Virus record (IMG/VR): IMGVR_UViG_3300021400_004213
DNA: 64,000 nucleotides
Strand: one strand, 5' to 3'
DNA from: an uncultured virus (IMG/VR IMGVR_UViG_3300021400_004213)
Lineage: Duplodnaviria; Heunggongvirae; Uroviricota; Caudoviricetes
Of this stretch, positions 4,574 to 55,898 are shown piece after piece. The notes below the pieces were generated by a model, which saw nothing but the letters and a program-made list of their open reading frames with translations, did not search any database and was not told the origin of the DNA. Positions within the stretch are counted from its first letter, which is position 1. Each line of letters opens with the position of its first letter. Position numbers and translations under genes: made by a program.

Positions 4574-4604
4574 TATAATTGACCATTAGGTCATACTGTA
4601 TCGG

Positions 4605-4636
4605 GGCCCTGGGGATTATATCCTCAGGGCTTCTTT
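4605..4636 (+). terminator. intrinsic terminator-like hairpin
   Basis: GCCCTGGGGA-TTATA-TCCTCAGGGC followed by TTCTTT. Confidence 0.6.
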
Positions 4637-4662
4637 AAATTAAACCGAAAGGACACGCCGAT

Positions 4663-6416: not shown

Positions 6417-6511
6417 AACCATACATCAAACAAAGCGAGAGAAAACTCAAAAGATACTGATGTGTCTGCAAGTTTTCTCTCTAATATTATATTCTGAAAG
6501 GAGGAATCACC

Positions 6512-8282: not shown

Positions 8283-8354
8283 CCTTTCGTCTCGCCTTTA
8301 TTCTCTACCGAGACTGTAGCTCGAAACCCCGCACACAAACGAAAGGGGGCAAAA

Positions 8355-8735: not shown

Positions 8736-8750
8736 AGGAGAGAAACCCGC

Positions 8751-14554: not shown

Positions 14555-14574
14555 ATAGTAAAACCAAATAAAAC

Positions 14575-14614
14575 AAAATCTCACACCTTGCTATTATGCA
14601 AAGTGTGAGATTTT
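14575..14614. terminator. bidirectional terminator
   Basis: AAAATCTCACAC...GTGTGAGATTTT between convergent genes. Confidence 0.7.
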
Positions 14615-14710
14615 CAATTTTAAGCACATTTTTATGAAAATATGAAAAACAATACGTTTCAAACCGAAACTTGGCTCTCCGTTAAAATTTGGCGCATAAA
14701 AGTCTATATT

Positions 14711-15331: not shown

Positions 15332-15558
15332 GGCAAACACCACCAACTTTTATTTTTTCGACATTATAACACATAAATCAATAAAACAAAACACTACATA
15401 AACTAAATTTACATAAATAAATAGCCCGCCCAGCGAATACGTCACACTGGGCGGCGAGATACATTACGCAATTTCCAATTGCTAAATGCTAAATACAAAA
15501 AGCATAATAAAACAAAAAGAAACGGTATCAAAAAATTACCAGAAAGGAAACAAAAATT

Positions 15559-16773: not shown

Positions 16774-16805
16774 TATCACCTCTCGACGAAAGGAGAACTA
16801 CAACA

Positions 16806-20476: not shown

Positions 20477-23248
20477 ATGCCAATTCTTTTGAACGATCTC
20501 CAGAACACCGCGCCAGTCGTTAAGACATACAGTCCGAAATTCTTCGACAGTAAACTGACAGGCAAAGGTGGAACTTCTGCTGGATTGCTCTCTGCAAGAA
20601 ACAATCCCCTTTCCATTGACCCGACCGTGACGACATCTCCGTCTGATTACGAGACCTACAGACGTAACTATCGTGCGGGACAGACTACACTCAATCGGAT
20701 TCCGATGAATCCGCTGACCACACAGAGCTTACGCTACATGGACAGCGTAGAACGTCCCGACCTTAAGGACTTGGTCAAAATCGGCACGCAGAAAAATGTG
20801 GAGCTTTATATGAATATGAAGGCCCAGACCATTTCCATTGAAGAGACCACGGTACCCGATCCGTGGGGCGGTCCGAGCCAGACAAAGCGTGTGTTCACAG
20901 CATCTTATATCATCACTCTGTACTATGTACAGGATAGCACTAAGACCACACACGCACAGACGAATATGCTTCATGTTCGCCCAACGCGCAACTACTACAT
21001 CAACATCTTCCTGACAAATCCTTTGCAGGAAATGCAGTTCGATATCGCACAGCAGTTAAAATCCAATGGCTGGACAATTGACAATCAGGCCATTGTCGAC
21101 TACATCGTCAATTATGACCTGTATGACGCTGTTTGCGAAAGAAGTGAAGAATGGCAGACTTACATCGATAAGACGCTCGACTCATTCTTCACAAACATCC
21201 ACGACCACTATGCAAACGATTCTACCGCTATGCATTACGTGGAAGATCAGGTCAAGTACATCATGTCTTACAACATTCCGCTTGATCTCTACAAGAGCAT
21301 TTACGCCTCGATTGCCAAGAACTTCGGAGCAACAGATGCAAGACGGATCTGCAAGCAGAACCTGAACTTGCTGTTATCTGATACGCTGAGCAACCTCAAC
21401 GCTCACAAGACGCAGATTAACGGCTTCACGCCGACCACACAGTTGGCAAACCTGCCGTCCAGCATCAAGCGTTTGTCTAACGAACAGAAAAAAGCAGTCA
21501 TGTCTACCGAACCGCTCATCCTTGTTCAGGCTGGTGCAGGCACGGGTAAGTCTACGCTTATCCTTGGTCGAATCGACTACTTGGTTGACTCAGGCGTTGC
21601 TCCTGAAGATATCACGGTACTGTCCTTCACTAACGCTGCGGCAGACCACATCACGGATAAAAATCCGAACGTCCACTCCATGACCATCGCTCGCATGATT
21701 CATGAGATTTACACAGCAAACTTCCAGAATCATGAACTGTCGTCTCTGGATACTATCATCAATAGTATCGACATCTACTTCCCGCCGACACCTGGTGTTT
21801 CCACACCAAACGGTATCAACAGGAACATCGTAGATCAGTTCCAGCGTAAGCTGAAAGCTATGGTCAAAAATGATACCAACAACTTTACCGAGATGAATAA
21901 CTTCATCGAGGAAAACTATGATGATGTCATGGCTATCCTTGATACAATCAGCCAAACGTCTCTGGAACTGGAAATTATCATCTGTTACCAGAAAATCGAC
22001 ACGTTCGTTGAACCTGCATCTATTGCCAGCAAATTCCTCATCATTGACGAAGTGCAGGACAACTCGATTTTCGAGTTCGTCTATACGCTGAAGTATGTTG
22101 ACAAGCATAAGGAATCCTTGTTCATCGTTGGTGACTGCTCTCAGACACTGTACGAGTTCAGAGCTTCGAATCCTCGTGCGCTTAACATTCTGGAAGGTTC
22201 GAACACGTTCGCAACTTACCAGTTGAATGTCAACTACAGAAGCAATCAGGAAATCCTTGATTTCGCAAACATTGCTCTGCAGAACATCGAAGCAAACCAG
22301 TATGCACAGATTCAGTTACAGGCCAACTCATTGGCACAAGTAACGGAACAGTCATTCCTCGACCATGTGGAATTCAACTATCATCAGATGATGAAGATTA
22401 CGGATTTCCATCAGGAACTGCCTCAGATTTTCAGCATGGAAGTGCGTCCTTACATCGAAAGATGTCTTGCTCGTAACGAGCAGGTAGCAGTCCTTGCGTT
22501 CACGCGAAATGACGTTGCCGTCATTAAGCAGATTCTTGAGAATCAGTATCCTGGCACCACATGCGTCAGCCTTGTTCCGAAGAAAATGTACAACACGACT
22601 GTCATGTCTAGCTTCATCAAGAAGTATTGGAATGACATCAAGTTTGCTCCGTATCAGAATATCATCAACATCATTCACAGAGAAATTATGGCTCGCTTGA
22701 CATATCTCGTTTACAACGACAAGCAGGCTGCGCCTCGCATCTCTCAGATGTTAAATGATTGGGCAGCACAGGAAGGTCCGAAAATTCAGACCTGGATCAA
22801 TCAGTGCAAGAACGGTCAGTTGACCGAAACAGAACTCCGTGATCTTGTCATGGATAACATGATCAAGTACGAAATTAGCACAAACGCCATCAAGCAGTCG
22901 CTCTTGGCTGTAGAAAATCAGCTGGCAAAAGCCGATGGCGCCGCTGACAATGCCGATTTCGTCATCTCCACAATTCACTCTGCGAAAGGATTGGAGTTCC
23001 AGAACGTTATCGTCCTGTATCGTAACGAAAACCAAATGGAAGAAGACAAGAAACGTATGTATTACGTTGCGCTCACCAGAGCAATGCAGTCTGAATACAT
23101 CTTGGCATACGATACGATGGCTTCGCCTCAGATTCAGGCCGACTACGTAACTGTGTTGGAGCACTTGCATGCAATCGCTCCTGCACAGAACAGCCCGATT
23201 GATATGCTTGCTGCAAAGAGAAAACGCAGTAAGCGAATCAAGATTTAA
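20477..23248 (+). CDS. UvrD/PcrA-like SF1 helicase with long N-terminal extension
   Basis: AGAGTGKS, IDEVQD, VGDCSQTLYEFR, NYRS, TIHSAKGLEF, YVALTRA. Confidence 0.9.
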   Translation: MPILLNDLQNTAPVVKTYSPKFFDSKLTGKGGTSAGLLSARNNPLSIDPTVTTSPSDYETYRRNYRAGQTTLNRIPMNPLTTQSLRYMDSVERPDLKDLVKIGTQKNVELYMNMKAQTISIEETTVPDPWGGPSQTKRVFTASYIITLYYVQDSTKTTHAQTNMLHVRPTRNYYINIFLTNPLQEMQFDIAQQLKSNGWTIDNQAIVDYIVNYDLYDAVCERSEEWQTYIDKTLDSFFTNIHDHYANDSTAMHYVEDQVKYIMSYNIPLDLYKSIYASIAKNFGATDARRICKQNLNLLLSDTLSNLNAHKTQINGFTPTTQLANLPSSIKRLSNEQKKAVMSTEPLILVQAGAGTGKSTLILGRIDYLVDSGVAPEDITVLSFTNAAADHITDKNPNVHSMTIARMIHEIYTANFQNHELSSLDTIINSIDIYFPPTPGVSTPNGINRNIVDQFQRKLKAMVKNDTNNFTEMNNFIEENYDDVMAILDTISQTSLELEIIICYQKIDTFVEPASIASKFLIIDEVQDNSIFEFVYTLKYVDKHKESLFIVGDCSQTLYEFRASNPRALNILEGSNTFATYQLNVNYRSNQEILDFANIALQNIEANQYAQIQLQANSLAQVTEQSFLDHVEFNYHQMMKITDFHQELPQIFSMEVRPYIERCLARNEQVAVLAFTRNDVAVIKQILENQYPGTTCVSLVPKKMYNTTVMSSFIKKYWNDIKFAPYQNIINIIHREIMARLTYLVYNDKQAAPRISQMLNDWAAQEGPKIQTWINQCKNGQLTETELRDLVMDNMIKYEISTNAIKQSLLAVENQLAKADGAADNADFVISTIHSAKGLEFQNVIVLYRNENQMEEDKKRMYYVALTRAMQSEYILAYDTMASPQIQADYVTVLEHLHAIAPAQNSPIDMLAAKRKRSKRIKI

Positions 23249-24269: not shown

Positions 24270-25418
24270 TTATAGACTAAACGCTCCTGTAAACAACTTG
24301 ACGATATCATTATACGTCACATAGACCAACAAAACCATCAACAACACCATCCCAGCCGCATTGATAGCATATTCCACTCTTGCAGGAACTTTACGTCTAA
24401 ATAGACCCTCGAAAATACAAAGCAGGAATCGACCGCCATCCAATGCAGGCAAAGGAAACATATTCACAACACCCAAGTTGATAGAAATCAACGACAACAT
24501 ATACAAAAGGAAACTCATCGTCGCAGCGAAACCTGACATCTCACCAACAGCTGATGTAATAACTGCCGTAATACCAACAACACCACTCATGTCATTCAAT
24601 CCAGCTTGACCTGTCGCTAACAGATGGAACGTATCAGCAACACTATAAAACATATATCTAAACGAATCCCATGAGTATAGCATTACATTACTGAATGTTT
24701 TATCCACAGGTTTCTCTGTCAAATTCATACCGATAAGACCCGTCTCAGGATCTTCGACGACCCATACGGTCATCGGTTCATTATCACGCAAAATATGCAA
24801 ATTGAAACCATCTTTTGTTTCTAAGGCATGTGTTGCCTTATACTCCGCATAATCCATCCACACCAACGTTTCACGATCATTAATGCCAGTGATAATATCA
24901 CCAGGCTGTAATTGAGCCACTACAGCGGGGGAATTAGGCTCCAAACTTTCAATTTGGATAACATCCAAATTTGCGAAAAACGTGATTGAAATCAAACACG
25001 CAAGAGCACCAAGGATCACATTAAAAATTGGACCTGCTGCATAGATTATCATCTTCTGCCAAAAAGGCTTTGCAAGCAACTTTTGGTCATCTGTCCAATC
25101 CGTTTTGTAATCAGCAGGCTTTACAAAACGAAAGCGTTTTTCTTTATTTTGTTCAATCGTTTCAACGGACGTACCTTTTGCAGACGCTTCGGCACTCTCC
25201 TCTCCATACATCGCACAATATCCGCCAAACGGAATGGCTCGTATAGACCAAACGGTATCTCCCTTTCTCTTCGAGTAAAACGACGGTCCCATTCCGATTG
25301 AATACTCCACAACACCAACGTGGAATAATTTTGCTGCCACCAAGTGTCCAAATTCATGAAAACTAATGCAAAGCAAAATCACAAAGACGGAACCTAAGAT
25401 TCCAAGAACATATAACAT
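24270..25418 (-). CDS. RseP/RasP-like M50 intramembrane metalloprotease with PDZ domain
   Basis: HEFGH, IPFGGYC, AGP..N, NMFPLPALDGG. Start moved to ATG 25418 (AAAGGGGG RBS). Confidence 0.9.
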   Translation of the reverse strand: MLYVLGILGSVFVILLCISFHEFGHLVAAKLFHVGVVEYSIGMGPSFYSKRKGDTVWSIRAIPFGGYCAMYGEESAEASAKGTSVETIEQNKEKRFRFVKPADYKTDWTDDQKLLAKPFWQKMIIYAAGPIFNVILGALACLISITFFANLDVIQIESLEPNSPAVVAQLQPGDIITGINDRETLVWMDYAEYKATHALETKDGFNLHILRDNEPMTVWVVEDPETGLIGMNLTEKPVDKTFSNVMLYSWDSFRYMFYSVADTFHLLATGQAGLNDMSGVVGITAVITSAVGEMSGFAATMSFLLYMLSLISINLGVVNMFPLPALDGGRFLLCIFEGLFRRKVPARVEYAINAAGMVLLMVLLVYVTYNDIVKLFTGAFSL

Positions 25419-25450
25419 GATTCCACATGTCCCCCTTTCAATTAGTAAAC

Positions 25451-25568
25451 AAAAAAGCCCGAACAGAATGTGTAAGACGCACCCTGCTCGGACTTCTCTG
25501 CCCGACAAACTATGAACAATCTCACAGAATGTCTGTGACGTCAATCACCGAGGCTGCGCCTCAATGAT
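25451..25568 (-). ncRNA. structured 5' leader or small RNA ending in an intrinsic terminator upstream of the RseP-like gene
   Basis: Two hairpins, then AGUCCGAGCAGGGUG...CAUUCUGUUCGGGCU followed by a U-tract. Confidence 0.6.
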
Positions 25569-25610: not shown

Positions 25611-26087
25611 TTATTCTCTCGGAGCAAAACCAAGCAATACTAAATCGTCATCATTTGCTAATACAAAATCATCTGATAACTCATATGGACGATAGCCAAG
25701 AGAATAAAAACATGAAGGCCAATACTTCAATGCAAATGCATTTTTACGCAATACGAGTAAACTATATACACCTTTATGACGAGTCATATAATCGGCCAAT
25801 ACATCTCGCATCAAATGCTTACCTCGATGAGCAGGTAACACATACGCTTCTCGAACAGATCGAATACTGTTCGGATGTATAAACCGACCCGCTTTTCCGA
25901 TGATAAGAAAACCAACAAGTTCTCCATTATCAAAGACATTGTGCCACGAACATTCAGATGAATTCAAATAACCTTCAAAATCTTCACGTACTTCATCATC
26001 ATTCTTAAAAGCAGGAACTGTACGAAAACCGTCCAGTTCCATCATATAAGCACGGTACAAAGCTAATTTCTCGTCATACATTGACAT
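25611..26087 (-). CDS. GNAT-family acetyltransferase
   Basis: LVGFLI, AYVLPAHRGKHL, N..ALKYW. Start uncertain. Confidence 0.75.
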   Translation of the reverse strand: MSMYDEKLALYRAYMMELDGFRTVPAFKNDDEVREDFEGYLNSSECSWHNVFDNGELVGFLIIGKAGRFIHPNSIRSVREAYVLPAHRGKHLMRDVLADYMTRHKGVYSLLVLRKNAFALKYWPSCFYSLGYRPYELSDDFVLANDDDLVLLGFAPRE

Positions 26088-26096
26088 AACTATCAA

Positions 26097-26291
26097 TCAT
26101 CCTTTCCGACGCACGCTATTTAACATACGCTGCGTTCTCGTGACGTCTTCAGTAACAGCTACACCAGATTCATACAATTGCTCGACACGCTTCTTATGAG
26201 CGGTAGCCTTCTTACGACCTTCCTGCATTTTCTGTTGCTGTTCAGGAGAAATTGTACGTTTCTTACCGCTATGTTTTCTTCTTTTCGCCAT
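26097..26291 (-). CDS. small basic hypothetical protein
   Basis: GGAGGT RBS before ATG (MAKRRK). Confidence 0.6.
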   Translation of the reverse strand: MAKRRKHSGKKRTISPEQQQKMQEGRKKATAHKKRVEQLYESGVAVTEDVTRTQRMLNSVRRKG

Positions 26292-26336
26292 TTCTGTATA
26301 CCTCCGATATAATAGAGTAGACATTCATCTATCCCT

Positions 26337-26365
26337 ATTATATCGAAAAACCTCTCATAAATCAA
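26337..26365 (-). promoter_or_regulatory. sigmaA-type promoter overlapped by the palindromic operator
   Basis: TTGATT-17 bp-TATAAT; box at 26354-26365. Confidence 0.7.
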
Positions 26366-26368
26366 GAT

Positions 26369-26782
26369 TTATTTGCCAAATTCCACACCCGCATCTTTCG
26401 ATACATCTTCTGACAAATCTACACCAAGAACACGAGCGGCTCTTTCATAACGTGACAAACTATTCTCAGATGACTGTACCACACCAGACTGTTTTGTTAA
26501 CATTTCCTTTGAAGCCATCTCTGTTCCCCATGTCACGCCATGTTCTGCATCCAAAGAAGGCACAGGTAAAGATTTACCTGTACGTTCCAAAACATGAGCA
26601 CCAGCAATACGAGCCTCAAAAGCCGACTCAACAAAATCCAGCTGATCCTCACGAGAACCTTTGGCATACACATCATTCTCAAGACCGCGATTGTATTTAT
26701 TCATAGACATCTGATAATCAACATACTGACGATCTACAGACGGCTGTTGTACAATTCCATTTATATCAAGTTTCTTAGCCAT
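26369..26782 (-). CDS. hypothetical protein
   Basis: GAAAGGAG RBS; C-terminus DAGVEFGK. Confidence 0.65.
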   Translation of the reverse strand: MAKKLDINGIVQQPSVDRQYVDYQMSMNKYNRGLENDVYAKGSREDQLDFVESAFEARIAGAHVLERTGKSLPVPSLDAEHGVTWGTEMASKEMLTKQSGVVQSSENSLSRYERAARVLGVDLSEDVSKDAGVEFGK

Positions 26783-26975
26783 AGCCAAAACACTCCTTTC
26801 AGTCTGATAGTGGAAGCATCATAATATCCTTCTGCTGCTTTCATCTATACTCTAAACCAAAAACCTCAATAATGGAAGAGGTTATTTTTCAAACTGATCA
26901 AAGAAATTCCAAAAGAAAATGGCTCAACATCATAGATGCAGAGCCATTTATTTGAAAATAACAAAACGAAAAGAT

Positions 26976-27743
26976 TTAAACCATGACAGCCTGATAAAGC
27001 AAGCCTAAGATTAAAAGATGCAACGGATAAAACACATAGAAACCATATCTACGAATGGCGTTGCGTTTTTGAATCTTCGTTCCATCATAGAAAAGCATAA
27101 ATGGGATTGCCAACAATGCGCCAGGTGTTCCATACGAAACTGCCACAAACAACGCCACGAACGAGCCTGGAATCCAAAATTGCCAGTCAGGATGTGCATT
27201 CCACATCCAGAACACCAAGCCACACAGCGGCACGATAATAAAGCAATAATCTACGATACAAAACACTGCTGCGATACTTAAAACGCCAATAACCAGCAGA
27301 TTCGCACTTAAATAAAAAGTTTTATCTAACTCTCCTGCTTCATACATCATATGAATCTTTCGCATACACATAATGGTCAGCGAACCAAAAAACCATGACA
27401 ACATGACATTTTGGTACGAAAATTCTAACCATACATGCTTAAATGCAAAATCAAAACAAGGTTCTGAAATCACGGCAAAAATACCGAGTAATAAAAGATG
27501 TTTTGTCATCTTCTTCGTGTACATCATACCTTGAATAAACAAGGTACAGAATATCGGAAAAGCAATACGTCCGATAACACTACGTAACAAAACATATAAA
27601 AACGAATTTTCGCCATACAATGGTAAGACAAAAACTTCACCAATATGATCACATAACATTGCGATACAAGCAATAATCTTCAAGACATCCCTTGATAATA
27701 CTTGTACCTTCTGTGGAATCACTACCGATTTTTTCGTATTCAT
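26976..27743 (-). CDS. traX: TraX-family membrane acyltransferase
   Basis: LKIIACIAMLCDH, GRIAFPIF, SEPCFD, QNV, FYVFYPLHL. Confidence 0.8.
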   Translation of the reverse strand: MNTKKSVVIPQKVQVLSRDVLKIIACIAMLCDHIGEVFVLPLYGENSFLYVLLRSVIGRIAFPIFCTLFIQGMMYTKKMTKHLLLLGIFAVISEPCFDFAFKHVWLEFSYQNVMLSWFFGSLTIMCMRKIHMMYEAGELDKTFYLSANLLVIGVLSIAAVFCIVDYCFIIVPLCGLVFWMWNAHPDWQFWIPGSFVALFVAVSYGTPGALLAIPFMLFYDGTKIQKRNAIRRYGFYVFYPLHLLILGLLYQAVMV

Positions 27744-27752
27744 ATCTCAATC

Positions 27753-27923
27753 TCACATACCAAATACCTTAGACATAACGAACATAAACAGCCTATCAAT
27801 TCCAAAAAAACAGCCACCAGTAATAACTGATAAAACTAATACACGCAACGACGTACCCATCAATGTACCAAACGATGGGTATTTCATATTATTTGCGTAC
27901 CTTGATTTGCCACCACTTCTCAT
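27753..27923 (-). CDS. secE: SecE-like preprotein translocase subunit (56 aa, absent from the ORF track)
   Basis: Hand translation MRSGGKSRYANNMKYPSFGTLMGTSLRVLVLSVITGGCFFGIDRLFMFVMSKVFGM matches the SecE K-x-W/Y-P...T..V...TM...D pattern. ATG is 1 nt after the secY stop. Confidence 0.7.
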   Translation of the reverse strand: MRSGGKSRYANNMKYPSFGTLMGTSLRVLVLSVITGGCFFGIDRLFMFVMSKVFGM

Positions 27924-27924
27924 A

Positions 27925-29280
27925 TTACGGCCTCACTTTCGAAAACAGTACGAACTGATTCGCAGTTCGTTCATGCTTGAACTCAGACATTTCCTTCATA
28001 TAACCAATGTACCGAGCACTACGCTTCTCTACCTTCCAAGTATACCATGTATCATTTACGACAGATACAATAATAATGAGTGATGTTCCAAGAAAACTCA
28101 ATGACGGAACACCAAACACACGACTCATTACAATTGGAAGTGCTGCCAATATACAGAGTCCAAAACAACCTAAGAAATTCAGCTTACCGCCATATTTTTT
28201 CAAATAATTCTCTGTCTCAACGCCAGGAGCCACACCGACAATGACGGCACCTGATTTCTTCAAGTTTGATGCCACTTCAATTGGATTCATATTGACCAGC
28301 TGTGTATAATAACCAAACACAAAGATCATAAAGAAATAAATCAGCAATCCAATCGAAGCCACTGGATCTGAAAAATCCAACCACTTGTTCATATCAAAGA
28401 TACGAAGCCACGCAGCATTACCACCGAAAAGAGATGCAATAATCGAAAATACACTCAAAAAACTCGATGCAAAAATAACAGGTAAAACTGAATTTGGCAA
28501 CATCTTCAACGGCAAAACGCTGTTTTCATATACCAATTCATTATCAGACGTTGATTTATGATTATATTCCAAACGCACATCACGTTCTACATAATTCAAC
28601 CAATTTACAAAAATCAACATCACTAAACTAACAAAGACTACAACACTGACGAAAATCCAGTATTCAGATGATTTTCCTGACACTGACTGTGCTCTCGTAA
28701 GCATATTCGCAATTTCATGCGGAACATTACTTAAAATACCAGCAAGTAGGAACAACGAAATACCATTACCAAACAATTCGTCATCAATATAGTTTCCCAT
28801 AAAGGCAAACAGAATGGAACAAAGTGCCATGATGACAGTGCAAACTAACATTGCAACCCAATCGGTACGTACAAAAACACCATACGACATATAGGTGTTT
28901 AAAATTCCCAAAGAGGAAACAATACTTGTTATAATACTTAACCCGATTGTCAGCTGTTTAATCTTCTTCCGTCCAATCGCACCACTTCTTTGCAATTCAG
29001 CAATACTCGGAATCACAATTCCAAAGATTTGAATAAAAATCGATGCTGAAATATACGGTGAAATACCAAGCCCTGCGATGGATACACGTGACAACGCACC
29101 ACCCGTAAGAATATTCAACACACCAAATGATTCACCTAAACCTGATCCTGCAAAAAATGCATTTACATCAGTGAATGGTAATGGTATACAACATAACAGT
29201 CGATAAATTAGCAAAAACAAAATCGAACCGATCACTCGCTTTGCTAATGATTTTTTCTTCCACTTTCCTGCTACAATCAT
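27925..29280 (-). CDS. secY: preprotein translocase SecY (divergent)
   Basis: IPLP, LGISPYISASIFIQ, GNGISL, PVIFAS, NLKKSGAVIVGVAPG.ET, GTSLIIIVSV; about 10 TM helices. Confidence 0.92.
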   Translation of the reverse strand: MIVAGKWKKKSLAKRVIGSILFLLIYRLLCCIPLPFTDVNAFFAGSGLGESFGVLNILTGGALSRVSIAGLGISPYISASIFIQIFGIVIPSIAELQRSGAIGRKKIKQLTIGLSIITSIVSSLGILNTYMSYGVFVRTDWVAMLVCTVIMALCSILFAFMGNYIDDELFGNGISLFLLAGILSNVPHEIANMLTRAQSVSGKSSEYWIFVSVVVFVSLVMLIFVNWLNYVERDVRLEYNHKSTSDNELVYENSVLPLKMLPNSVLPVIFASSFLSVFSIIASLFGGNAAWLRIFDMNKWLDFSDPVASIGLLIYFFMIFVFGYYTQLVNMNPIEVASNLKKSGAVIVGVAPGVETENYLKKYGGKLNFLGCFGLCILAALPIVMSRVFGVPSLSFLGTSLIIIVSVVNDTWYTWKVEKRSARYIGYMKEMSEFKHERTANQFVLFSKVRP

Positions 29281-29334
29281 ACGTGAAAACTCCTTTTGTC
29301 CGATCAATCTTTAAAACTGCTCGTTTATGAACCT

Positions 29335-29363
29335 ATTATAACACATAGGCCCAACAATCGCAA
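29335..29363 (-). promoter_or_regulatory. sigmaA-type promoter for secY-secE-traX
   Basis: TTGCGA-17 bp-TGnTATAAT. Confidence 0.7.
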
Positions 29364-29418
29364 GCAAAATCCAAATAAAAAAACTTCATTTATGAACCAC
29401 TTTTTTTTCGCAAAAGTA

Positions 29419-29447
29419 TTGACATATGCATCAATTTAATGTAGAAT
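29419..29447 (+). promoter_or_regulatory. sigmaA promoter for the HU gene
   Basis: TTGACA-17 bp-TAGAAT. Confidence 0.8.
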
Positions 29448-29515
29448 AGGAGCATAAAGAAAAGATGGCGGTAATAAGTCAGCCGCCACTAATAAAAAAA
29501 TGGAGGATAACAAAA

Positions 29516-29797
29516 ATGACAAATCTGACAAAAGAACATGTGATTGAAGCTATGGTTGCACAGGAAAAGGGCCTCTCTAAGGCTGCTGCTGACAGACTTC
29601 TGAGACTGACAGCAAAGATGATCAAGGAAGCCGTCGCTGAAGGTGGTCGTGCTACATTCCCTGGTTTTGGCACCTTTGTTGCTGTTGACACCAAAGAGCG
29701 TGAAGCTGCCAATCCTCGTACTGGCGAAAAGATCACTGTTCCTGCAGGCCGCCGTATCAAGTTCAAGGCTGGTAAGGCGTTCAAAGAATCTCTGTAA
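29516..29797 (+). CDS. hup: HU-family DNA-binding protein
   Basis: GFGTF, REAANPRTGEKITVPA, KFKAGK; GGAGG RBS. Confidence 0.92.
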   Translation: MTNLTKEHVIEAMVAQEKGLSKAAADRLLRLTAKMIKEAVAEGGRATFPGFGTFVAVDTKEREAANPRTGEKITVPAGRRIKFKAGKAFKESL

Positions 29798-29819
29798 TTA
29801 TCACTTTACAGATAGAAAT

Positions 29820-29850
29820 AAGGCCGAGTGCATCAGCACTCGGTCTTTTT
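29820..29850 (+). terminator. intrinsic terminator
   Basis: GGCCGAGTGC-ATCA-GCACTCGGTC followed by TTTTT. Confidence 0.85.
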
Positions 29851-29857
29851 CTTATTA

Positions 29858-30559
29858 TTAGCAACAATCCCATGTATAAAACACATCAGAAAAATCCATC
29901 TGTTCTAAATCTTCTTTTCGAATAAAGAAATTCGCAACACCCACATCGCCCCACATGATAATGTCTTTATAAGAATCCATCTGGAACAATAACATATCGT
30001 ATTGTTTGTTACTACCCTTTCGTGGGTCATATTGTGTGAAAAAAGGATATCCTAACAACTTACTACCGCCACCGCTGAAAAAATTATAAGCTTCTTCATC
30101 TTCGATAATCTCCGACTCATCCGCATAATCAGCGAAACGATAATCTGAATATGACATGAACTCTGTAGTCAATTCAAAAGTCATTCGACATGGCTTCAAC
30201 ACAGGAGAATCTTTGTATTGCTTCCAAATCTCAATCCCATCATCTCGTACACACTCGTGATAAACAACCAAACTTCCATTTTCCTTGAACAAACCATAGG
30301 TATTATCCGTTCCAACAAAAAATTGCAACATACCATGATTCGGGAAAATGTCGTTCTCTGGCAACTCAGCAAGATTAATCTGTGCTAAAAACATCAAATC
30401 TGGTGATTCGCCACTATTGGGCCAATAAAATGACCCACCAATCTTACTTGTTCGATAATCACCACTATCATCTTCGATGTATGTGATATCAAACATCGGT
30501 GTTGATGGTAGAATAGACTTCAACTCATCAATCAAAGTTCCTTTCTCTTCAGCATTCAT
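29858..30559 (-). CDS. YwqG/DUF1963-family protein
   Basis: SKIGG, FLAQIN, GMLQFF, LLGYPFFTQ.DPR, WGDVG, WDCC. Confidence 0.85.
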   Translation of the reverse strand: MNAEEKGTLIDELKSILPSTPMFDITYIEDDSGDYRTSKIGGSFYWPNSGESPDLMFLAQINLAELPENDIFPNHGMLQFFVGTDNTYGLFKENGSLVVYHECVRDDGIEIWKQYKDSPVLKPCRMTFELTTEFMSYSDYRFADYADESEIIEDEEAYNFFSGGGSKLLGYPFFTQYDPRKGSNKQYDMLLFQMDSYKDIIMWGDVGVANFFIRKEDLEQMDFSDVFYTWDCC

Positions 30560-30587
30560 ATTGCACCTCTCTATAATTATATTATCA

Positions 30588-31979
30588 TCACCAAATAATT
30601 ATTGGTGTATATACATCACGATTTTTAATTACATTGAAAATATAATCTACTGTTTCATATGGTGTATTAATACACCCATGAGAACCATCACTTACATAAA
30701 TATTTCCACCGTAAGATGAACGCCAAGAAGAATCATGAATACCAACGCCATCCAGCGTAACACGAATAAAATAATGACAGAAAGCACTACCATATGACCC
30801 AGTCATGGTATGCTCTGTATACAAATCAGTAGTACGATACATACCTGTTGGAGTTGCACGAGATGGATCATCACGAGTACCCGTGATAACATTAGCATCA
30901 GCCGTACATACACCATTCTCAATAAACCACAGGTGTTGATCATTAATACTAATTTCAACATATGTATCGCCAAAATCGTTGTCTTCTCCATGCGCAACGG
31001 ATTTATAAATCCATGGCACAGTGATTTCCGCGTTGCGACCAGAGCGTAACGCCTCAATCAGCAGGTCATACAGACCAGCATCATCCAAAAGCCAACCAGA
31101 CAAATGACAAACCGTCCTGTTCTCAGATGACACATCATCCAATATTACCGTTTCGCCTGTAGACGTATGGAAAGTACGAGACTGTCCTCTCGTATTATAC
31201 TTCGTACCGAGAGATATAACATATTCCCGCACCTTATCTTCATCAATCGTAAAACGACCATTCACGACATTTCCAATGTCGTTTAGAACATCTTTCGGCA
31301 CTTGGATAGATGTACCATCACCAAGATCCAATTCAATCTGAGTTTCTTTGAAACTACTTGCCTGTTCTTTTAGATTCAATAAATTTTCATCATCTTCTCG
31401 AACATCGGCAAGCGCATAGCAACCATCTTCTAACAAATCGACATCATATGATGCATCAGCAAGACTTGCAACAATTGCATCTTTCAATTTATAAATATCG
31501 ATTTGCGTTCCTATCATATCAGGAACAATCTGATAGTCTCCATCTTCTGTTTTAACTACATATGCATCAGTTGGTGCTAAATTTCCCGCAGAAACACAAC
31601 CCAAACGACTTACTGCATTCAGCAACGTCGTTTCATTATATGACAACGCATTATCCGTTGTATAATAGCGCTCCGTAAAAAACGAAATAGGCCATATAAA
31701 AGGACTTGTCAATTTCGAAGCAGACTGTAAATCACCAACACGTGTAATTCCGAGTTGATCAAAAGTTGCAACTTCAGTTGCACCATCAGGCATATAAATC
31801 GTAACAATACGATTTCTTGTTCGATTGGTCATTTCAATGGATAAATCCATACTCGTCTTATAAAACACATCTTGCCCATCAATATGGTCACCATATAAGA
31901 AATGCCCAGAAAAAACCAAAACACCAGAGAAATAAACAAAGAGCAGACATACTATTAATATCCACCATCGACGCCTCAT
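30588..31979 (-). CDS. membrane-anchored L,D-transpeptidase (YkuD domain)
   Basis: N-terminal TM helix, YVEISINDQHL, TPTG, GIHD, SHGCIN. Confidence 0.88.
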   Translation of the reverse strand: MRRRWWILIVCLLFVYFSGVLVFSGHFLYGDHIDGQDVFYKTSMDLSIEMTNRTRNRIVTIYMPDGATEVATFDQLGITRVGDLQSASKLTSPFIWPISFFTERYYTTDNALSYNETTLLNAVSRLGCVSAGNLAPTDAYVVKTEDGDYQIVPDMIGTQIDIYKLKDAIVASLADASYDVDLLEDGCYALADVREDDENLLNLKEQASSFKETQIELDLGDGTSIQVPKDVLNDIGNVVNGRFTIDEDKVREYVISLGTKYNTRGQSRTFHTSTGETVILDDVSSENRTVCHLSGWLLDDAGLYDLLIEALRSGRNAEITVPWIYKSVAHGEDNDFGDTYVEISINDQHLWFIENGVCTADANVITGTRDDPSRATPTGMYRTTDLYTEHTMTGSYGSAFCHYFIRVTLDGVGIHDSSWRSSYGGNIYVSDGSHGCINTPYETVDYIFNVIKNRDVYTPIIIW

Positions 31980-32101
31980 AAACGACAACCCTCTTTTCCA
32001 TAAAAGACCTAAAAAATAAGCGCCGCCCCTGTCAAATCAAGAGCGGCACTCAGGCGAACTATCAAGCACAAACATGCCGTCAATCGACCATGCCATGTTG
32101 A

Positions 32102-32437
32102 TTACTCACGATCACTATCGCGAACCTTCTTGTTCAACACGTTAGAAGATGCAAACTTCACGACACGATAGTCACGAACAGCACCTTTCTTTCCACCAAA
32201 CTGAACTGGATGTCCCTTATGAAGTTGTGCGTAAAACGATCCAAATCCAGTAAACGCTACGCGATGACCAGCACAAATTAATTCAATTAACTCGTCAATG
32301 CAAGCCTTAAATACCTCTTCGACGGTATACAAATCACGAACAGTTCCATCCTCAGATGGGTACTGCTCGGCTAGTTTTGCTTTTACATTTTCGAGAAATT
32401 TATCTTTATTGATTTTGTCATATGCTTGTTTATTCAT
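32102..32437 (-). CDS. second, divergent HU/IHF-like protein
   Basis: GHRVAFTGFGSF, VVKFASS..L. Confidence 0.75.
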   Translation of the reverse strand: MNKQAYDKINKDKFLENVKAKLAEQYPSEDGTVRDLYTVEEVFKACIDELIELICAGHRVAFTGFGSFYAQLHKGHPVQFGGKKGAVRDYRVVKFASSNVLNKKVRDSDRE

Positions 32438-32552
32438 AATCCAAATACTCTCCTTATCATACAAAAAAATTTGTAGATAAGCGTTGCTCATTCACACACT
32501 CAATCATGTTTTATTCATAAATGAACAAAACGTTTTACCCTCTTTAACAGTC

Positions 32553-32581
32553 AGTATACAACAGATTTTCAAAAAATACAA
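32553..32581 (-). promoter_or_regulatory. sigmaA-type promoter with downstream operator box
   Basis: TTGTAT-17 bp-TATACT; TTCATAAATGAA at 32514-32525. Confidence 0.6.
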
Positions 32582-32628
32582 CTGGGTTTTGAAAAAAACT
32601 CATATTTATGAGCAGATTTCCAAAAAAA

Positions 32629-33060
32629 TCAATACTCATACTCTTGGTGATCTTTATCGCCAATACCAGTGATGCCAGAAATATCAGGTAAACGACGAAG
32701 GTCTTTACCAAATAAAGCTCCGCCAATATCATTCGAAAGGTTATCCACACCTTTCTGCATCTTATGACGAGTATAAGCAGCACCGCCAACAACTGCGCCA
32801 ACTGCAACGGCATTGGCAATACCAACTTTCGTTAAAAAACCACTCTTATTCGGATCTTCCTCCTCAGCAGACATATCGTCCTCTTCAGCCTTCTTGTTCT
32901 TTGCATCATCAGGTGATTCTTTTTCATCTTTCTTGTTCTTCACATCACCAGATTCATCGTTTTCTTTACCAGAATTCTTCTTATTCTTTTTCTTTTCAGC
33001 GTCCTCAGCTGTCGTTTGAGCCAAAGTCATATCCATTTCGGTTTCATCATACATAGCCAT
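32629..33060 (-). CDS. charged hypothetical protein with C-terminal RRLPDISG motif
   Basis: AAGGGAG RBS; acidic/Lys-rich N-half and one hydrophobic segment. Confidence 0.7.
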   Translation of the reverse strand: MAMYDETEMDMTLAQTTAEDAEKKKNKKNSGKENDESGDVKNKKDEKESPDDAKNKKAEEDDMSAEEEDPNKSGFLTKVGIANAVAVGAVVGGAAYTRHKMQKGVDNLSNDIGGALFGKDLRRLPDISGITGIGDKDHQEYEY

Positions 33061-33083
33061 GATTCAATCTCCCTTCTCACAAA

Positions 33084-33902
33084 TCATTTAGAAAAATCCT
33101 CTAATGCGGCTTCATAATCATCTACAGAAACACCCATATCGTGAATCAAAGGATTATCTATACCAAGTTTTGATAATTTCAAATCATCACTCTTAGTTTC
33201 TGTATATCCTGCATGAGCCAACGCAGCGGCTCTTGCTTCATCATGAATCTCACGTTTCATTGCTTCCCCAGCAGCTTTACGTTCAACCAAATCACCAGTT
33301 TCTTTTCCTGCTGCCACAGCAACCATCGTTTCACGTAATGCGGCATTACGATCTTCCAAATCCACATGGAAGGCATCGTCAGGAGCAGACGGAGCCTGTT
33401 CTTTCAAATCTTCTACATATTCATTATATTCAGCCGTACCCATCTGCAACGACGTTTGCGTCTTTGCATCATTTTCATGTGTATCAAGAGGCTTGAATAC
33501 AATAAACTGTTGCCTACGTTTCTGTTGTTTATCTTTTGCAACAAGTTTCTCAAGCTTCGTCATTTCCTGTACTTCAGCTTGTCTCGTCAAATGCAACTCT
33601 TCCGCTTCTTCAAAATGATGTTTTGCCTGACAATACGGGCAATCCACATCTCGCTCATCACGACCTATATAAAATACGTGACCGCAATTTGGACACAAAC
33701 ACTCAACCAAATTATCTTTGCTCGTATCAACAACATAAGTATCTGATTGAACAGCACGCTTACGAGAAGCATCCTTTGACTTTTGCATAAGACGGAGATT
33801 GCGGTCATCATCATTCGTATCGTTTGAACGGGAACCGCCAAACACATCGACTATATCCAGGTCATCATCCATGACCATAATATCATCGGGAACCATAATG
33901 CC
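33084..33902 (-). CDS. acidic protein with zinc ribbon
   Basis: CPNCG...CPYC. The AGGAGGT RBS suggests a start near 33896-33902; start uncertain. Confidence 0.65.
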   Translation of the reverse strand, partial: GIMVPDDIMVMDDDLDIVDVFGGSRSNDTNDDDRNLRLMQKSKDASRKRAVQSDTYVVDTSKDNLVECLCPNCGHVFYIGRDERDVDCPYCQAKHHFEEAEELHLTRQAEVQEMTKLEKLVAKDKQQKRRQQFIVFKPLDTHENDAKTQTSLQMGTAEYNEYVEDLKEQAPSAPDDAFHVDLEDRNAALRETMVAVAAGKETGDLVERKAAGEAMKREIHDEARAAALAHAGYTETKSDDLKLSKLGIDNPLIHDMGVSVDDYEAALEDFSK

Positions 33903-33969
33903 GTACCTCCTTTCATTTCCCATAATAACACTAAAAACAGCAAAACAAAAGAGGTAAAATATTGATTAA

Positions 33970-34572
33970 TCAGCCAAATTCATCAAAATGATATCCATCA
34001 TCAGGTAAATCATGGTTCGGACCGTCAATACTAGACACATAATTACCACGCTCATCATCATAATAAACATGTCCATCTTTCGTGGCTGTATCCTTCGCTA
34101 ACGCCCTAAAATTTTCTCGATTTGCACGCTTCTCTGCTGCCATACGTTCTTTACGATACGCAGAATATTCATCACCAAGTGCCTGAAGAGTATCAGCCGA
34201 CAAAACATCGTCAACATGATAGACAGCATCGTACAAATTTTCTCTTGCACCAGCAATATTATCCTGATGATTCACATCACCAAAATTTTCGTTATGAACT
34301 AACGAATCCATATATGCAGGCAGACGACCTGCTTCCATATCTTCACGAGTAAATCCTTCACGTTCTAAAACAGCATCATTTAATGCTGGAACTTGAGGTT
34401 CATATTCGGCACGCACCGATTCCTGTGCTTCATAATCATAAAATGATTCTGTTGCGGCAATAACCCTATCGTTAATGAATGGAACAGATGCTGAACGAAC
34501 TTCACCAAATTTACTCATATCTTTATCATATCGATCCACGAATGACAAATCCAATTTATAGCTTTCAGCCAT
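33970..34572 (-). CDS. acidic hypothetical protein downstream of the RNAP gene
   Basis: GGGAGG RBS; C-terminus HDLPDDGYHFDEFG. Confidence 0.7.
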   Translation of the reverse strand: MAESYKLDLSFVDRYDKDMSKFGEVRSASVPFINDRVIAATESFYDYEAQESVRAEYEPQVPALNDAVLEREGFTREDMEAGRLPAYMDSLVHNENFGDVNHQDNIAGARENLYDAVYHVDDVLSADTLQALGDEYSAYRKERMAAEKRANRENFRALAKDTATKDGHVYYDDERGNYVSSIDGPNHDLPDDGYHFDEFG

Positions 34573-34647: not shown

Positions 34648-37600
34648 TTAACTATTCGGACCATCATTGCCATCTTGCAAATCTTCAGGGCCTTTCACAC
34701 CACTGATATCAGGCAACTCACGATGCATTTTCTTACCATCAGTAGGTGCAGAAGATTTCTCTGTATCCGTTACAGGCGCCTCAGCTGTCTTCGTAAAGTC
34801 ATACTTGAAAGTACTACCCTTACCAGCAGCGGCGGCCTTCGCAGCAGGATCAAATCCAGCAGATGTCGAAACATCTTTACCACGGAACGCCTTTACGTCG
34901 CCTTCACTCTCAACAGAAAGGTCCACCGCACTATTTCTAACATCAATAGTGTTATGTACCATACGAGTATCCGATGGCTGAATAGCCTTCATCTCATCGG
35001 CATGACCATCTGCAGCCAATTGCATATTACGACGAATCTGTTCAGGCGCAAACTGATAGCTCGCAGAACCCTCATACAGATTACGTCCTTCCTGTGCCAT
35101 AGAGTTCAACAAATCACGCGCACGACCATCTGTCTGATAATAAGCAAGCTGGTCAACAGGAGATACATACTTACTGATAACCTGCGGATCCTCGATATTC
35201 AACATACGACCATCTGGACCAACCATAGCATCAGCAACACGCTCAACATCTTCGCGGCTCACAGAACCGCCAAGGTCAAGACCCTTCTTATCTTCATGAA
35301 CTTCCATGAATGTCTTAACCCATTCATCACGGGTAGCCTGAATTGGCTTACCTGTACCTCTATCATAAGCCACACGCCAATGAGGAACGCCCTTATCATC
35401 CGTACTCTTCTCCATGGAATAACCACGCCACAAATTACGGATATCAGCGTTTACTTTATCTTCCAGAATCTGAGCCTTTACTGGGTCATGCTTTGCCTGC
35501 AAAATACCCTGCGTTGCCAAATAAGACAAACGCAAACCCGACTCCAAAGCACCCGCATTCGGTTGCTCAGGTTCAAACTCAGACGCCTTATTACGAAGGA
35601 ACGATACCATTCGCTGCGAAACAGCACCCGCATTACCAGTACAATGTGCCTTGATAGCAGTAGATTTCTCGACATCACGAATATTCTGTTGTGTAACCAA
35701 CTGTTCCTCGGAAACCTTAACACTCTCTGGCAAAATACGTCCATCAGCATCATGGTCAGCCGTAAATCCTGCATACTGCATATAAGAATTCAGCTTACCC
35801 ATACTACCTTTTGCCTTATGGTCAACGACCGTAATCAAAGATTGCATTAAAGCTTCAGGACTCTTAAACGACAATGCTTCAGAGCCAACACCCTTGAATA
35901 CATCCTTCGTATAATCAGACAATTCACGCATCAAGTCCTTATTCTTCTGCATACGATCTTCAGCAGACAAAGATGTATCACGATAAACATCATTGTATTC
36001 ACGCTCTAAACGAATACGACGCTCACGAAGCGTTTCAGGCAATGCATCAACAGCACTCTTATATGCATCAGTTCCTTCGCCGTACTGTGCTTTCAACTTT
36101 TCCAAAGTTTCAGCACGACGCTCATTGTCAACTTCCTCATTGGAAATGACATCCATCGAATCGTTGAACATCAGTGCATAATCACCTTGACGGAAACCTG
36201 CAGATGCATCTTTTTCGCCACGAACACGTGAAAAATCAAGCATATTCTGATCAAACGAGAACAGACGATAGGCTTCTTCCTTCGCAGCATCTGTCTGAAC
36301 AGACTGAATAGCAACAGAGTCACCATCGAAGTCACCATCAAACGAAACAGCAATCGCTGGGTTAACAGCACAACCATGAAGTTCAGGATCAACCTTCACA
36401 TCCATATAACGCATACCATACGTACGAAGCAACGGGTCACGTGCAATCAATACACGGTCACCATCTTTCACACCGAGCTTGTCAGACAAACCAGGTGACA
36501 ATGACACTTGATTCAAATCCAAAGATGGATCTGGTGTCCAAACAGCCGTTGCAGACTTCGACATACGACGTGCCATCACAGAATCACGGAACAAATTATG
36601 TTTCGTATCCAAGATACGAGCATATACATCGTCCATGATACCATTATAATCTTGCTGAGCACTCCTCTGAGCATCAGACATTGCTTTACGACATTTCTCT
36701 TTATCAGCATCCGTTCCAGCAGTTGCCAAGTCAGCCTCAGCCTTCAAATATTTAACACCATTCTCATAAATACGCTGATACTGATTCGTATAATCATGCG
36801 TCATCTTCGTACCATCTTCGAATGTCTGTCCACTACGCAAATGCGAGGACATGACAGGTAACGCATACATTGCATGACCATTACGCTCCACACCTTCAAT
36901 CGGCTCTGTCTTCTGAGAAACACCCGTTTCTGGATTCGAAGCCATCTGTTCCAACGGGAACGGAAGTTCCATGAAACCGCCACGGCTACCAACCGTATCG
37001 GCAAACAACTTACCAAGATCTTTCGATTCAATATTAGCCAATGTTGCATCGTCAGGCATATGGAACGGATATCTCTCTTCGCCATTATGTGGCTTATATC
37101 CAAAACGGACATCACCTGTCTCAGAGAAATCCCAACCTAACGTATTCATATATTCACGAAGATTCGTTACTGCAGAACTGTTCGGACCATAATATTCAGC
37201 CATCATTGCAGGAGCGCCTTTAGCTGTCAACATCCAGCCCTGCTGAGCGGAGACCTTACGGCCTTTACCCTGCTTAACATCATCATCGTCATAACTCTTT
37301 GTATGATCTTCTGCTGTATGATGTGTAATCGTTACAGGCATGTAAGCAATACCGCCTTCCACAACACGATCATCAGACAACTTTAAATCTTCATGAGATT
37401 CAAGACCAAACTTCGCAGCAGCCGCATTAAAACGGCTACATGGTGAATATGGAGACTGAACAATATCCAAAGTTGGATTGTTCTTAAACAACTCAACGAT
37501 ATCCGTCAGTCCACGTTTCTCCGCCTCTGCTGGATCCATATTACGGTCTACAACCAGACCAACGATACTCTTGTTACCAGAGCTATCGCAAATCTTATCA

Positions 37601-55881: not shown

Positions 55882-55898
55882 AAGTCTCTCCTCCTGCA

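Follow-up and report, generated by a model that had tools for sequence, protein, structure and literature searches.

The closest described counterparts of the locus treated here are found on the Hodor megaplasmids, conjugative elements of the human gut of 211-389 kb and 44-48% guanine-cytosine (GC) content that had been misfiled as huge phages (PMC12934698, a preprint of February 2026, cited throughout from its available parts). These megaplasmids carry a conserved hyp-SecY-SecG-SecE operon in the vicinity of genes for trigger factor, sortase B and giant surface proteins; SecY (447 amino acids, aa), SecG (87 aa), SecE (84 aa) and NrdD are among their core families, TraX-family genes are present, and the authors view the Sec proteins as a pore for the plasmid-encoded giant surface proteins (PMC12934698). 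Our subject is an operon of three genes, secY, a probable secE and traX, located with its promoter-like site at 26976-29363 in a stretch of 64,000 nucleotides (nt) of the IMG/VR virus record IMGVR_UViG_3300021400_004213. We call this stretch the window; all positions refer to it unless another contig is named, and its own contig is 114 kb long. The three genes form a real, intact, conserved and tight operon outside the spc and nusG contexts, on a mobile element. On balance we lean towards reading it as an auxiliary SecYE translocon borne by a plasmid-like gut element, placed within an envelope island and serving the envelope proteins of that element.

As far as the available parts of the preprint go, the window and the Hodors are alike in having SecY and SecE on what would be a gut mobile element of very large size and Bacillota type, which to classifiers resembles a phage, and they share NrdD, a TraX-family gene, Phage_lysozyme2 domains and a proposed export of element-encoded envelope proteins. 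Unlike the Hodor megaplasmids, the window has no SecG between secY and secE, and neither trigger factor, sortase, Rep_3, ParA/B, VirB4 nor VirD4 was found among its open reading frames (ORFs). Its traX is part of the operon, whereas in one Hodor genome TraX (_194) and SecY (_236) are about 40 genes apart. The window also has gyrase, an RseP-type protease, a YkuD-type L,D-transpeptidase (Ldt) and a 2094-aa RNA polymerase (RNAP)-like protein, whereas gyrase, M50, YkuD and transpeptidase do not appear in the accessible portion of the Hodor supplement. Finally, the window occurs mainly in animal-gut runs, although L009 and L010, which are related to it, derive from assemblies of the human gut.

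Two further contigs, L003 and L004, carry secY, an 86-aa ORF with two predicted helices and an 80-aa SecE (the L003 locus is at 7767-9822; the L004 SecY has 443 aa), which matches the order and sizes published for the Hodor SecY-SecG-SecE genes. Judging by order and sizes alone, we infer that these two may be Hodors. If L004 can stand for the group, the Hodor SecY is far from the clade of the window in our phylogenetic tree. The window looks like a separate lineage and variant of the recently described megaplasmid Sec operons. The original prediction had emphasised a context different from that of the SecA2/SecY2 accessory systems; this difference holds, whereas the novelty of the context is weakened by the Hodor operon as the accessible text describes it (PMC12934698). 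Among the matches listed in a literature search for secY, secE and megaplasmid, only that preprint was relevant by title or abstract. Nothing pairing SecY with huge phages was found: among the papers listed by searches combining SecY with jumbo-phage, megaphage and phage-encoded terms, only the Hodor preprint held both, with "jumbo phage" confined to its reference list, and the available part of the Jug-phage paper (PMC12880540) contains no mention of secY, secE or translocase.

The cellular SecYEG translocon (PDB 7xha and 5eul from Geobacillus/Bacillus, 5abb from E. coli) resembles the proteins of the window in full-length homology, in the predicted ten-helix fold, in passing the TIGR00967 model and in the architecture of a single-helix SecE partner. 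On the other hand, identity is about 30%, the window secY is not in an spc operon, its secE is not beside nusG and there is no secG; the window protein has also lost the C5 arginine and the basic C4 loop, has a longer C-terminal tail and is located on a mobile element. The SecA2/SecY2 systems of Gram-positive cocci and lactobacilli are comparable as a second SecY-type channel, possibly with dedicated substrates. However, the window SecY is far under the cut-offs of the SecY2 models (NF009082, 112.3 bits vs 353; TIGR02920, 101 vs 249.6), it has a probable SecE partner, and a Pfam scan of the 66 window ORFs gave no SecA2, Asp1-3, Gtf or serine-rich adhesin gene. As had been anticipated, the locus is not a SecA2/SecY2 system.

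Operon structure and signals

The operon is encoded on the minus strand. secY (27925-29280, 451 aa) probably starts at the ATG at 29280, which has a ribosome-binding site, AAAGGAG, 8 nt ahead of it; the open frame itself reaches back to a TTG at 29307. The ATG start gives the same length as that of a database protein that is 99% identical (P0001). The TAA stop codon of secY (27927-27925) is followed by a single base and then by the ATG (27923) of a 56-aa ORF, the probable secE (27753-27923), which is preceded by GTGAGG, encodes one predicted transmembrane helix and ends with TGA. Nine bases separate this stop from the ATG of traX at 27743 (26976-27743), which encodes a 255-aa polytopic membrane protein of the TraX family (PF05857). 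The spacing of 1 nt and 9 nt between the three genes is exactly as originally described. About 20 nt past traX the operon is closed by a structure resembling an intrinsic terminator, i.e. a hairpin (26957-26907) followed by a U-run (26900-26957 in total, minus strand), with a folding energy of -22 kcal/mol (z = -5.5; none of 200 shuffled sequences equalled it).

Upstream of secY there is a promoter-like site (29335-29363, minus strand) with the sequence TTGCGA-17-TATAAT and a TG-extended -10 element, which agrees with the sigma-70-like consensus at 10 of 12 positions and is putative. Since the region has only a slight excess of such sites (39 vs 28.6 +/- 5.4 in shuffled sequences), the promoter that had been attributed to secY is present as a consensus match, and its function is plausible rather than demonstrated. 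The 184-nt region upstream of secY is common to a divergent gene for an HU-type DNA-binding protein (29465-29797, plus strand; PF00216, E 8.5e-23), which has a TTGACA-17-TAGAAT site of its own within the same region.

No ribosomal-protein or adk genes are found beside the window secY, the neighbours being HU, DUF1963, the YkuD Ldt and TraX. In contrast, the cellular control loci L005 and L021 show the order rplO-secY(-adk). The claim that this secY lies outside any ribosomal-protein operon is borne out by these flanks.

The small ORF as SecE

The 56-aa peptide had been proposed to be a SecE, and the comparison with SecE family models gave a graded answer. Its sole Pfam match is SecE (PF00584), with 22.4 bits, just short of the cut-off of 22.7 (E 1.2e-4), and with TIGR00964 it scores 17.2 against a cut-off of 27.55. 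The equivalent ORFs after secY in L009 and L010 do exceed the Pfam cut-off, with 36.0 and 29.3 bits respectively, both being under that of TIGR00964, and the SecE ORF at the same position in L003 reaches 46.6 bits in Pfam. A profile of seven small ORFs that follow secY, that of the window included, was searched against all PDB sequences. The 13 best of the 15 matches with E <= 1 were all SecE chains, the top one being 3dl8_C (E 1.2e-8).

When the window peptide was aligned with a profile of the other six ORFs using the hhalign program, the probability was 56.7% (E 1.1e-4, 41 columns) and the conserved proline was in register; Pro16 and Ser32 are invariant in the seven-ORF profile. The predicted layout is also SecE-like, i.e. 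a short basic segment with the conserved proline, followed by a C-terminal transmembrane helix, the single one of the peptide (residues 21-39). The ORF is therefore probably a SecE, judged from these sequence comparisons, and it is the most divergent member of the set. In other words, the peptide misses the family cut-off narrowly, while its counterparts in related contigs and the joint profile point to SecE.

The SecY protein and its lineage

The identity of SecY is clear. It matches PF00344 with 229.5 bits (cut-off 32.2; E 7.7e-68) over profile positions 1-305 of 306 and it passes the equivalog model TIGR00967 (263.9 bits, cut-off 253.6). Residues 11-428 align end to end with residues 13-429 of the Geobacillus SecY 7xha_Y. 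An AlphaFold2 model built from a 14-sequence alignment of the clade had a mean predicted local distance difference test score (pLDDT) of 73.7 and a predicted template modelling score (pTM) of 0.71. In a Foldseek search of the PDB the best 17 matches of this model were all bacterial SecY, with template modelling scores (by target length) of 0.72-0.81 for the best 16. The protein is thus modelled with the ten-helix SecY/Sec61-alpha fold.

A large protein search with SecY, in which 8000 candidates were scored and 4611 had E <= 0.001, gave among the best 120 of these 14 unnamed metagenome proteins that are 37-99% identical to the window SecY (E <= 2.3e-77). After these there is a gap; the remaining proteins in the same 120 have at most 37% identity, and the named ones are SecYs of Clostridia or Lachnospiraceae. 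A tree was then calculated for 67 rows: 16 clade members, 9 other loci without ribosomal-operon neighbours and 42 rows labelled cellular, several of which are unnamed metagenome proteins (IQ-TREE quick search, LG+C20, rooted on Bacteroidota SecY; branches are long). The 16 full-length SecYs are monophyletic (Shimodaira-Hasegawa-like approximate likelihood ratio test, SH-aLRT, 100), the identity among them is 34-70%, and 44 columns of the alignment do not vary, among them those of the GG, PYI-SASI and FGNG-S motifs. The sister group (SH-aLRT 99) consists of L001, L011, L013, L052 and one unnamed protein, and the whole divergent group of 22 rows (support 98) is sister to Lachnospiraceae-like SecYs. 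It is conspicuous that the terminal branches of the clade are 0.06-1.5 changes per site long, as compared to a median of 0.13 over all rows. The window protein belongs to a fast-evolving clade beside Lachnospiraceae-like SecYs.

The loci L004, L006/L007, L002 and L046 are placed elsewhere in the tree, and the label "other mobile element" requires at least 5 changes on it; SecY therefore seems, on this tree, to have been captured several times by mobile elements. Among these loci, L007 and L006, which are on IMG/VR contigs (325 and 125 kb) with a GC content of about 30%, have SecA (747 aa, four SecA Pfam domains), SecY and a 65-aa ORF in a row (L007 5758-9438). The L007 contig also carries AAA_10 (VirB4-like), ParA-like, T2SSE and Replic_Relax genes and a class I ribonucleotide reductase, and L006/L007 represent a further mobile element, with Sec genes of another composition. 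In L046, a 71-kb metagenome contig, YidC (60KD_IMP), SecDF and SecY are clustered at 3048-9278 near HNH and TROVE-domain genes and away from ribosomal genes, which may represent a third set of export genes assembled on a mobile element.

The loci most similar in organization are the two-gene loci L001, L011, L014, L012 and L013 of other gut contigs, in which secY is directly followed by a 52-59-aa SecE-like ORF outside ribosomal operons and whose SecYs are the sister group of the window clade (SH-aLRT 99). They differ from the window in their GC content (33-34% vs about 38-42%), in having no traX close by, in their neighbours (type I restriction-modification, RecJ), in their short C-terminal tails and in keeping the C5 arginine, with the exception of L013 (T). 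In L011, where secY-secE is at 7995-9429, a signal peptidase I gene (Peptidase_S26, 14327-14845) is found 5 kb downstream.

TraX

The third gene product matches PF05857 with E 3.5e-33. It had been linked to pilin acetylation; this link is dropped, as neither the equivalog model of the F-type pilin acetylase (TIGR02755, 19 bits vs a cut-off of 149.35) nor the TrbP model (NF010454, 37.8 bits vs 206) recognized the protein. Like F-plasmid TraX and RP4 TrbP it is a polytopic membrane protein of the PF05857 family on a mobile element. Unlike them it misses both models, the closest Atlas clusters are TraX-family proteins of Bacillota, no pilin family, F-type or other, was found among the window ORFs by the Pfam scan, and the hosts of the window are probably Gram-positive. 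From the model scores, the window TraX does not appear to be an F-type pilin acetylase. We take TraX, by its clan membership, to be among the membrane acyltransferases of Pfam.

The accessory envelope island

L009 and L010 are human-gut contigs of the same SecY lineage. A third contig, G001:C8 (150,958 bases, GC 55%), was found by scanning species genomes with the UvrD-like helicase of the window, and it has no secY itself; the only secY in that genome is a cellular one on a different contig. In the window the island is flanked by two backbone genes, the UvrD-like helicase (20477-23248, plus strand), which is 56% identical in L010 and 45% in C8, and an HU-like protein (32102-32491, minus strand) with relatives in L009, L010 and C8. 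The distance between them is 8.9 kb in the window and about 0.8 kb in C8. As C8 lacks the secY-secE-traX/Ldt block, this block is an accessory envelope island between backbone genes.

In the window the order of the island is MazF, a 132-aa ORF, RseP-type protease, GNAT, two small ORFs, traX, secE, secY, HU, DUF1963 and YkuD Ldt. The protease, a site-2 intramembrane protease of the RseP/RasP type with M50 and PDZ domains, is at 24270-25544 (minus strand; PF02163, E 1.1e-52; TIGR00054, 214.8 vs 147.55). The Ldt (30588-31988, minus strand), assigned by Pfam, has an N-terminal signal anchor (transmembrane helix 10-28) and relatives in L009 and L010.

In L010 the order is HU-like, YkuD, HU, four unknown genes, secY, secE, a 242-aa ORF, traX, three tRNAs, MazF, UvrD (56%) and ClpB-like (53%). 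The three tRNA genes (Leu-TAA, Asn-GTT and Leu-CAA, at 11628-12437 of L010) are inside the island; the window has no tRNA gene. In L009 the order is YkuD, secY, a 126-aa SecE with an N-terminal extension, an insertion that looks by eye like an IS200/IS605 type, a 480-aa ORF and traX. secE is beside secY, and traX is linked to them, in all three readable contigs of the lineage.

Occurrence and RNA libraries

Near-identical DNA occurs in runs of 16 studies whose records refer to animal gut, with sheep and bovine gut named. Four bovine-gut metatranscriptome libraries from three studies were examined through their Logan contigs, placed at a likeness of at least 90%. The HU gene has the deepest cover in all four runs (depth 12-46), as compared to 0-7 over secY, secE, traX and beyond. 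Pieces of secY are present in every run (X15 28797-29272; X16 28691-28913 and 29056-29281; X18 28023-28173; X17 in the depth table only). One contig of X16 (record 12, 27734-28202) spans the whole of secE and the secY/secE junction, and another (record 11, 27132-27356) is inside traX. No contig of these libraries bridges the secE/traX junction by the criterion of the tool; record 12 overlaps traX by 10 nt, and neither this overlap nor the uncovered parts of the stretch speak for or against the co-transcription of traX. The unevenness of the depth fits RNA better than contaminating DNA.

Proposed function

We suggest that SecY and SecE would be translated together from a single mRNA and would make up an additional core translocon in the membrane of the host. 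The tight coupling of secY and secE fits this suggestion because SecY without its partner is unstable in E. coli. Genes for SecA, SecG, YidC, the signal recognition particle (SRP) or signal peptidase were not found in the 64-kb window, so the channel must rely on host factors or on some other partner. Most likely the channel would safeguard or increase the means by which membrane and surface proteins encoded on the element are inserted and exported. Modification of exported or envelope substrates would fall to the acyltransferase of TraX type and to the L,D-transpeptidase, and the site-2 protease would tidy up the products; proteases of the RseP/RasP type clear signal peptides, and Eep matures pheromones.

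Candidate Sec clients in the window are the Ldt with its signal anchor, a LysM protein, a lipobox serpin, TraX, RseP, YdjM and three N-terminally anchored proteins, including a Phage_lysozyme2 hydrolase (57743-54455). The serpin-domain protein (58034-59734, minus strand, 566 aa) has a lipoprotein-type signal peptide with the lipobox LAAC after its likely true start and would act as a protease inhibitor tethered to the surface, here encoded by a mobile element. The three anchored proteins (54455-57743, minus strand) are encoded in a row and have 614 aa (with the Phage_lysozyme2 domain), 262 aa and 219 aa; their arrangement is reminiscent of Gram-positive conjugation systems with their genes for cell-wall hydrolases and scaffold proteins, a resemblance for which the family matches give no support. 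The idea of a private translocon put forward in the original prediction is reasonable on sequence grounds. Its extension to conjugation proteins is not supported; there is no identifiable conjugation machinery in the window.

Several observations weigh against an auxiliary translocon on a plasmid-like element. The 56-aa peptide by itself is under both curated SecE cut-offs (PF00584 and TIGR00964), and no substrate is linked to the channel. The contigs from the RNA libraries show no strand, ends or single transcript, and DNA may be present in such libraries. As to the element, the window has a phage-like set of genes (NrdD/NrdG, ThyX, gyrase, a D5-type primase-helicase and a Phage_lysozyme2 domain), no gene for conjugation, replication or partition could be recognised within its 64 kb, and the plasmid reading rests on C8, a distant relative (30-59% protein identity) that has no secY itself. 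The remaining points concern the cytosolic loops of SecY. Cellular SecYs read G-I/V-R-P-G in the C5 loop, whereas the window reads GVAPGVET, with alanine for arginine. The arginine is kept in 38 of 42 cellular rows and in all six basal rows of the clade, L009 and L010 included, and it is absent from all ten rows of the window's subclade, where it is replaced by A (six times), N (twice), S or E. The mean net charge of the C4 loop shows the same tendency, with +4.0 in the 42 cellular rows, +2.7 in the six basal rows and +0.7 in the ten rows of the subclade, the window itself having -1. In E. coli the C4 and C5 loops, in the regions of R255/R256 and R357, contact SecA and the ribosome, and the secY39 mutation is R357H. 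By analogy, the altered loops suggest that coupling to SecA or the ribosome may be weakened or altered in the subclade, and with both the arginine and the basic C4 loop lost, a simple use of host SecA and ribosomes is doubtful.

The loops bring up a different explanation, i.e. a specialised private channel in which SecY would no longer dock SecA or ribosomes in the normal way and would work with a partner recruited by its tail, and with TraX, in the dedicated export and acylation of one or a few surface substrates. The same ten rows have a C-terminal tail that is about 20 aa longer, includes a basic stretch and ends with F/L-x-L/M-L/F-x-K/R, whereas cellular SecYs end with Y-x-G-F-L; the co-occurrence of this tail with the loss of the arginine and the fall in charge argues for such a channel, and so does the linkage of traX in the three readable contigs. 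Nevertheless we consider it doubtful: neither a partner nor a substrate has been identified, the tail is predicted to be disordered (residues 435-451, pLDDT under 50), the functional meaning of the loop residues is carried over from E. coli, and traX is directly adjacent in the window only, being separated from secE by one 242-aa gene in L010 and by about 3.7 kb in L009. A broader version, in which a captured SecYE uncoupled from SecA and the ribosome would amount to a new accessory secretion-and-modification system with TraX, and perhaps with the Ldt and the site-2 protease, appears slightly less probable still.

The kind of element

The auxiliary translocon is read here as part of a plasmid-like element, and the evidence for this comes from the 66 ORFs of the window, scanned with Pfam, and from C8. 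Besides NrdD/NrdG, ThyX, GyrA/GyrB and the D5-type primase-helicase, the window encodes MgsA-like and ClpB-like ATPases, UvrD-like and SNF2 helicases, MazF, NADAR, Macro, a serpin and the Phage_lysozyme2 protein. G001:C8 is filed in a Muribaculaceae (Bacteroidota) bin despite its sortase, Gram-positive pilins, dockerin protein and MobL relaxase, and probably represents plasmid DNA from a Gram-positive host that was placed in the wrong bin. Nineteen of the 66 window ORFs match C8, mostly within one collinear block; the identities are 53% for SNF2, 37% for the primase-like, 51% for the MgsA-like, 55% for the HNH-like and 59% for the ClpB-like protein, 45% for UvrD and 30% for the RNAP-like protein, and the HU-like protein is also matched. 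The D5-type helicase matches C8 at 55% but outside the collinear block. In addition C8 carries the MobL relaxase (E 3e-55), a T4SS-DNA_transf match (E 4e-7), an ALP/ParM-like protein, a topoisomerase and a type I restriction-modification system.

The 2094-aa protein (34648-40932, minus strand) has as its sole family match the RNA polymerase Rpb1 domain 2 (residues 1487-1558). Among 50,697 phage records there was no match to it, whereas full-length matches of about 30% were found on actinobacterial megaplasmids of Rhodococcus, Streptomyces and Gordonia, and partial ones on Lactococcus and Staphylococcus plasmids. In Gordonia pGKT2 the homologue adjoins a coupling protein of a type IV secretion system (T4SS), with MgsA/RarA and SSB genes close by. 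These matches suggest a plasmid protein of wide distribution that has an RNAP-like core.

A huge phage was our first reading of the contig. A part of a jumbo phage, with SecYE serving host take-over or the export of virion or lysis proteins, would account for the phage-like replication and nucleotide-metabolism genes, the many PHROG matches, the Phage_lysozyme2 domain protein, the SNF2 helicase that is 43-45% identical to helicases of Firmicutes phages, and the three tRNAs on L010. This reading was dropped and is now improbable. Apart from the Phage_lysozyme2 domain, the window ORFs covered by the PHROG and Pfam scans gave no terminase, portal, capsid or tail family. Nor was any phage structural match found in the 151-kb C8, in which 113 of the 123 ORFs of at least 110 aa were scanned with Pfam (the 10 omitted being already matched to window proteins) and 62, nearly all Pfam-negative, with PHROGs. 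C8 has a relaxase, a coupling-protein-like and a ParM-like gene, and the only relatives found for the RNAP-like protein are on plasmids. A megablast search of 26000-34000 against the phage collection gave no match, and in tblastn searches of phage and plasmid collections SecY had matches of 22-33% identity only, which are secY or secY2 where annotated. In the IMG/VR contigs no relative turned up when SecY, the RNAP-like protein or UvrD was used singly as the query, and a profile scan with SecY found only other SecY lineages of 27-33% identity. According to the accessible text of the Hodor preprint, megaplasmids that carry genes of this kind are routinely mistaken for huge phages (PMC12934698).

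Given the collinearity with C8, its relaxase, coupling and ParM-like genes, and the lack of phage structural genes in the scans, we read the element as plasmid-like rather than as a phage or a chromosome and, going by this relative, as probably conjugative or mobilisable, with the caveat that the window itself shows no transfer gene. Its hosts probably belong to the Bacillota, of the Clostridia type, and live in animal guts.

Two other features of the window were noted. A 234-aa protein (46811-47515, plus strand) is an unusual fusion of sigma-70 region 4 (residues 58-105) and the C-terminal domain of the RNA polymerase alpha subunit (160-220). Long ORFs also overlap on opposite strands at 15442-16779 (minus) and 15559-16773 (plus); the plus frame matches AAA_5 (E 4.5e-9) and the minus frame has a 35% tblastn match over 424 aa to C8.

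Remaining alternatives

If SecYE is not an auxiliary translocon for the element's envelope proteins, it might be a protective spare, i.e. a divergent channel that lets the host or the element survive toxins or inhibitors that target SecY, or a stress that degrades it. Contact-dependent growth inhibition (CDI) toxins are reported to exploit SecY, according to the available part of one paper (PMC7858069). The very long branches of the clade (0.2-1.5 changes per site) would be expected under diversifying pressure, and the window carries the MazF toxin and the conflict genes NADAR and Macro. Still, we give this little credence: fast evolution is equally expected of a relaxed paralogue, nothing at the locus indicates immunity, and we know of no SecY toxin or inhibitor for these hosts. 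That the pair is a decaying hitch-hiker, captured from a host and now without function, is very improbable, since against the lost loop residues and long branches stand 16 of 16 clade members that are intact and full length at 34-70% identity, the 44 invariant columns, an intact ribosome-binding site and operon coupling, secE beside secY in the three readable contigs and the cover in RNA libraries.

Implications

Few genes of the cell are as conserved and essential as those of SecY and SecE, which are usually treated as part of an immobile core; their presence on large mobile elements of the gut changes this view. Sec genes recur across separate mobile lineages, as SecYE here, as SecYGE in the Hodors (in the accessible part of that report), and, on other contigs, as SecA-SecY and possibly as YidC-SecDF-SecY. 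The recurrence suggests that big plasmids supply envelope-biogenesis capacity of their own, which could widen the host range or permit very large surface proteins. Marker-gene phylogenies and estimates of bin quality that assume a single-copy secY can also be misled by copies of this kind. The subclade of the window, in turn, is a natural experiment, i.e. a SecY minus the residues thought to be needed for coupling to SecA and the ribosome.

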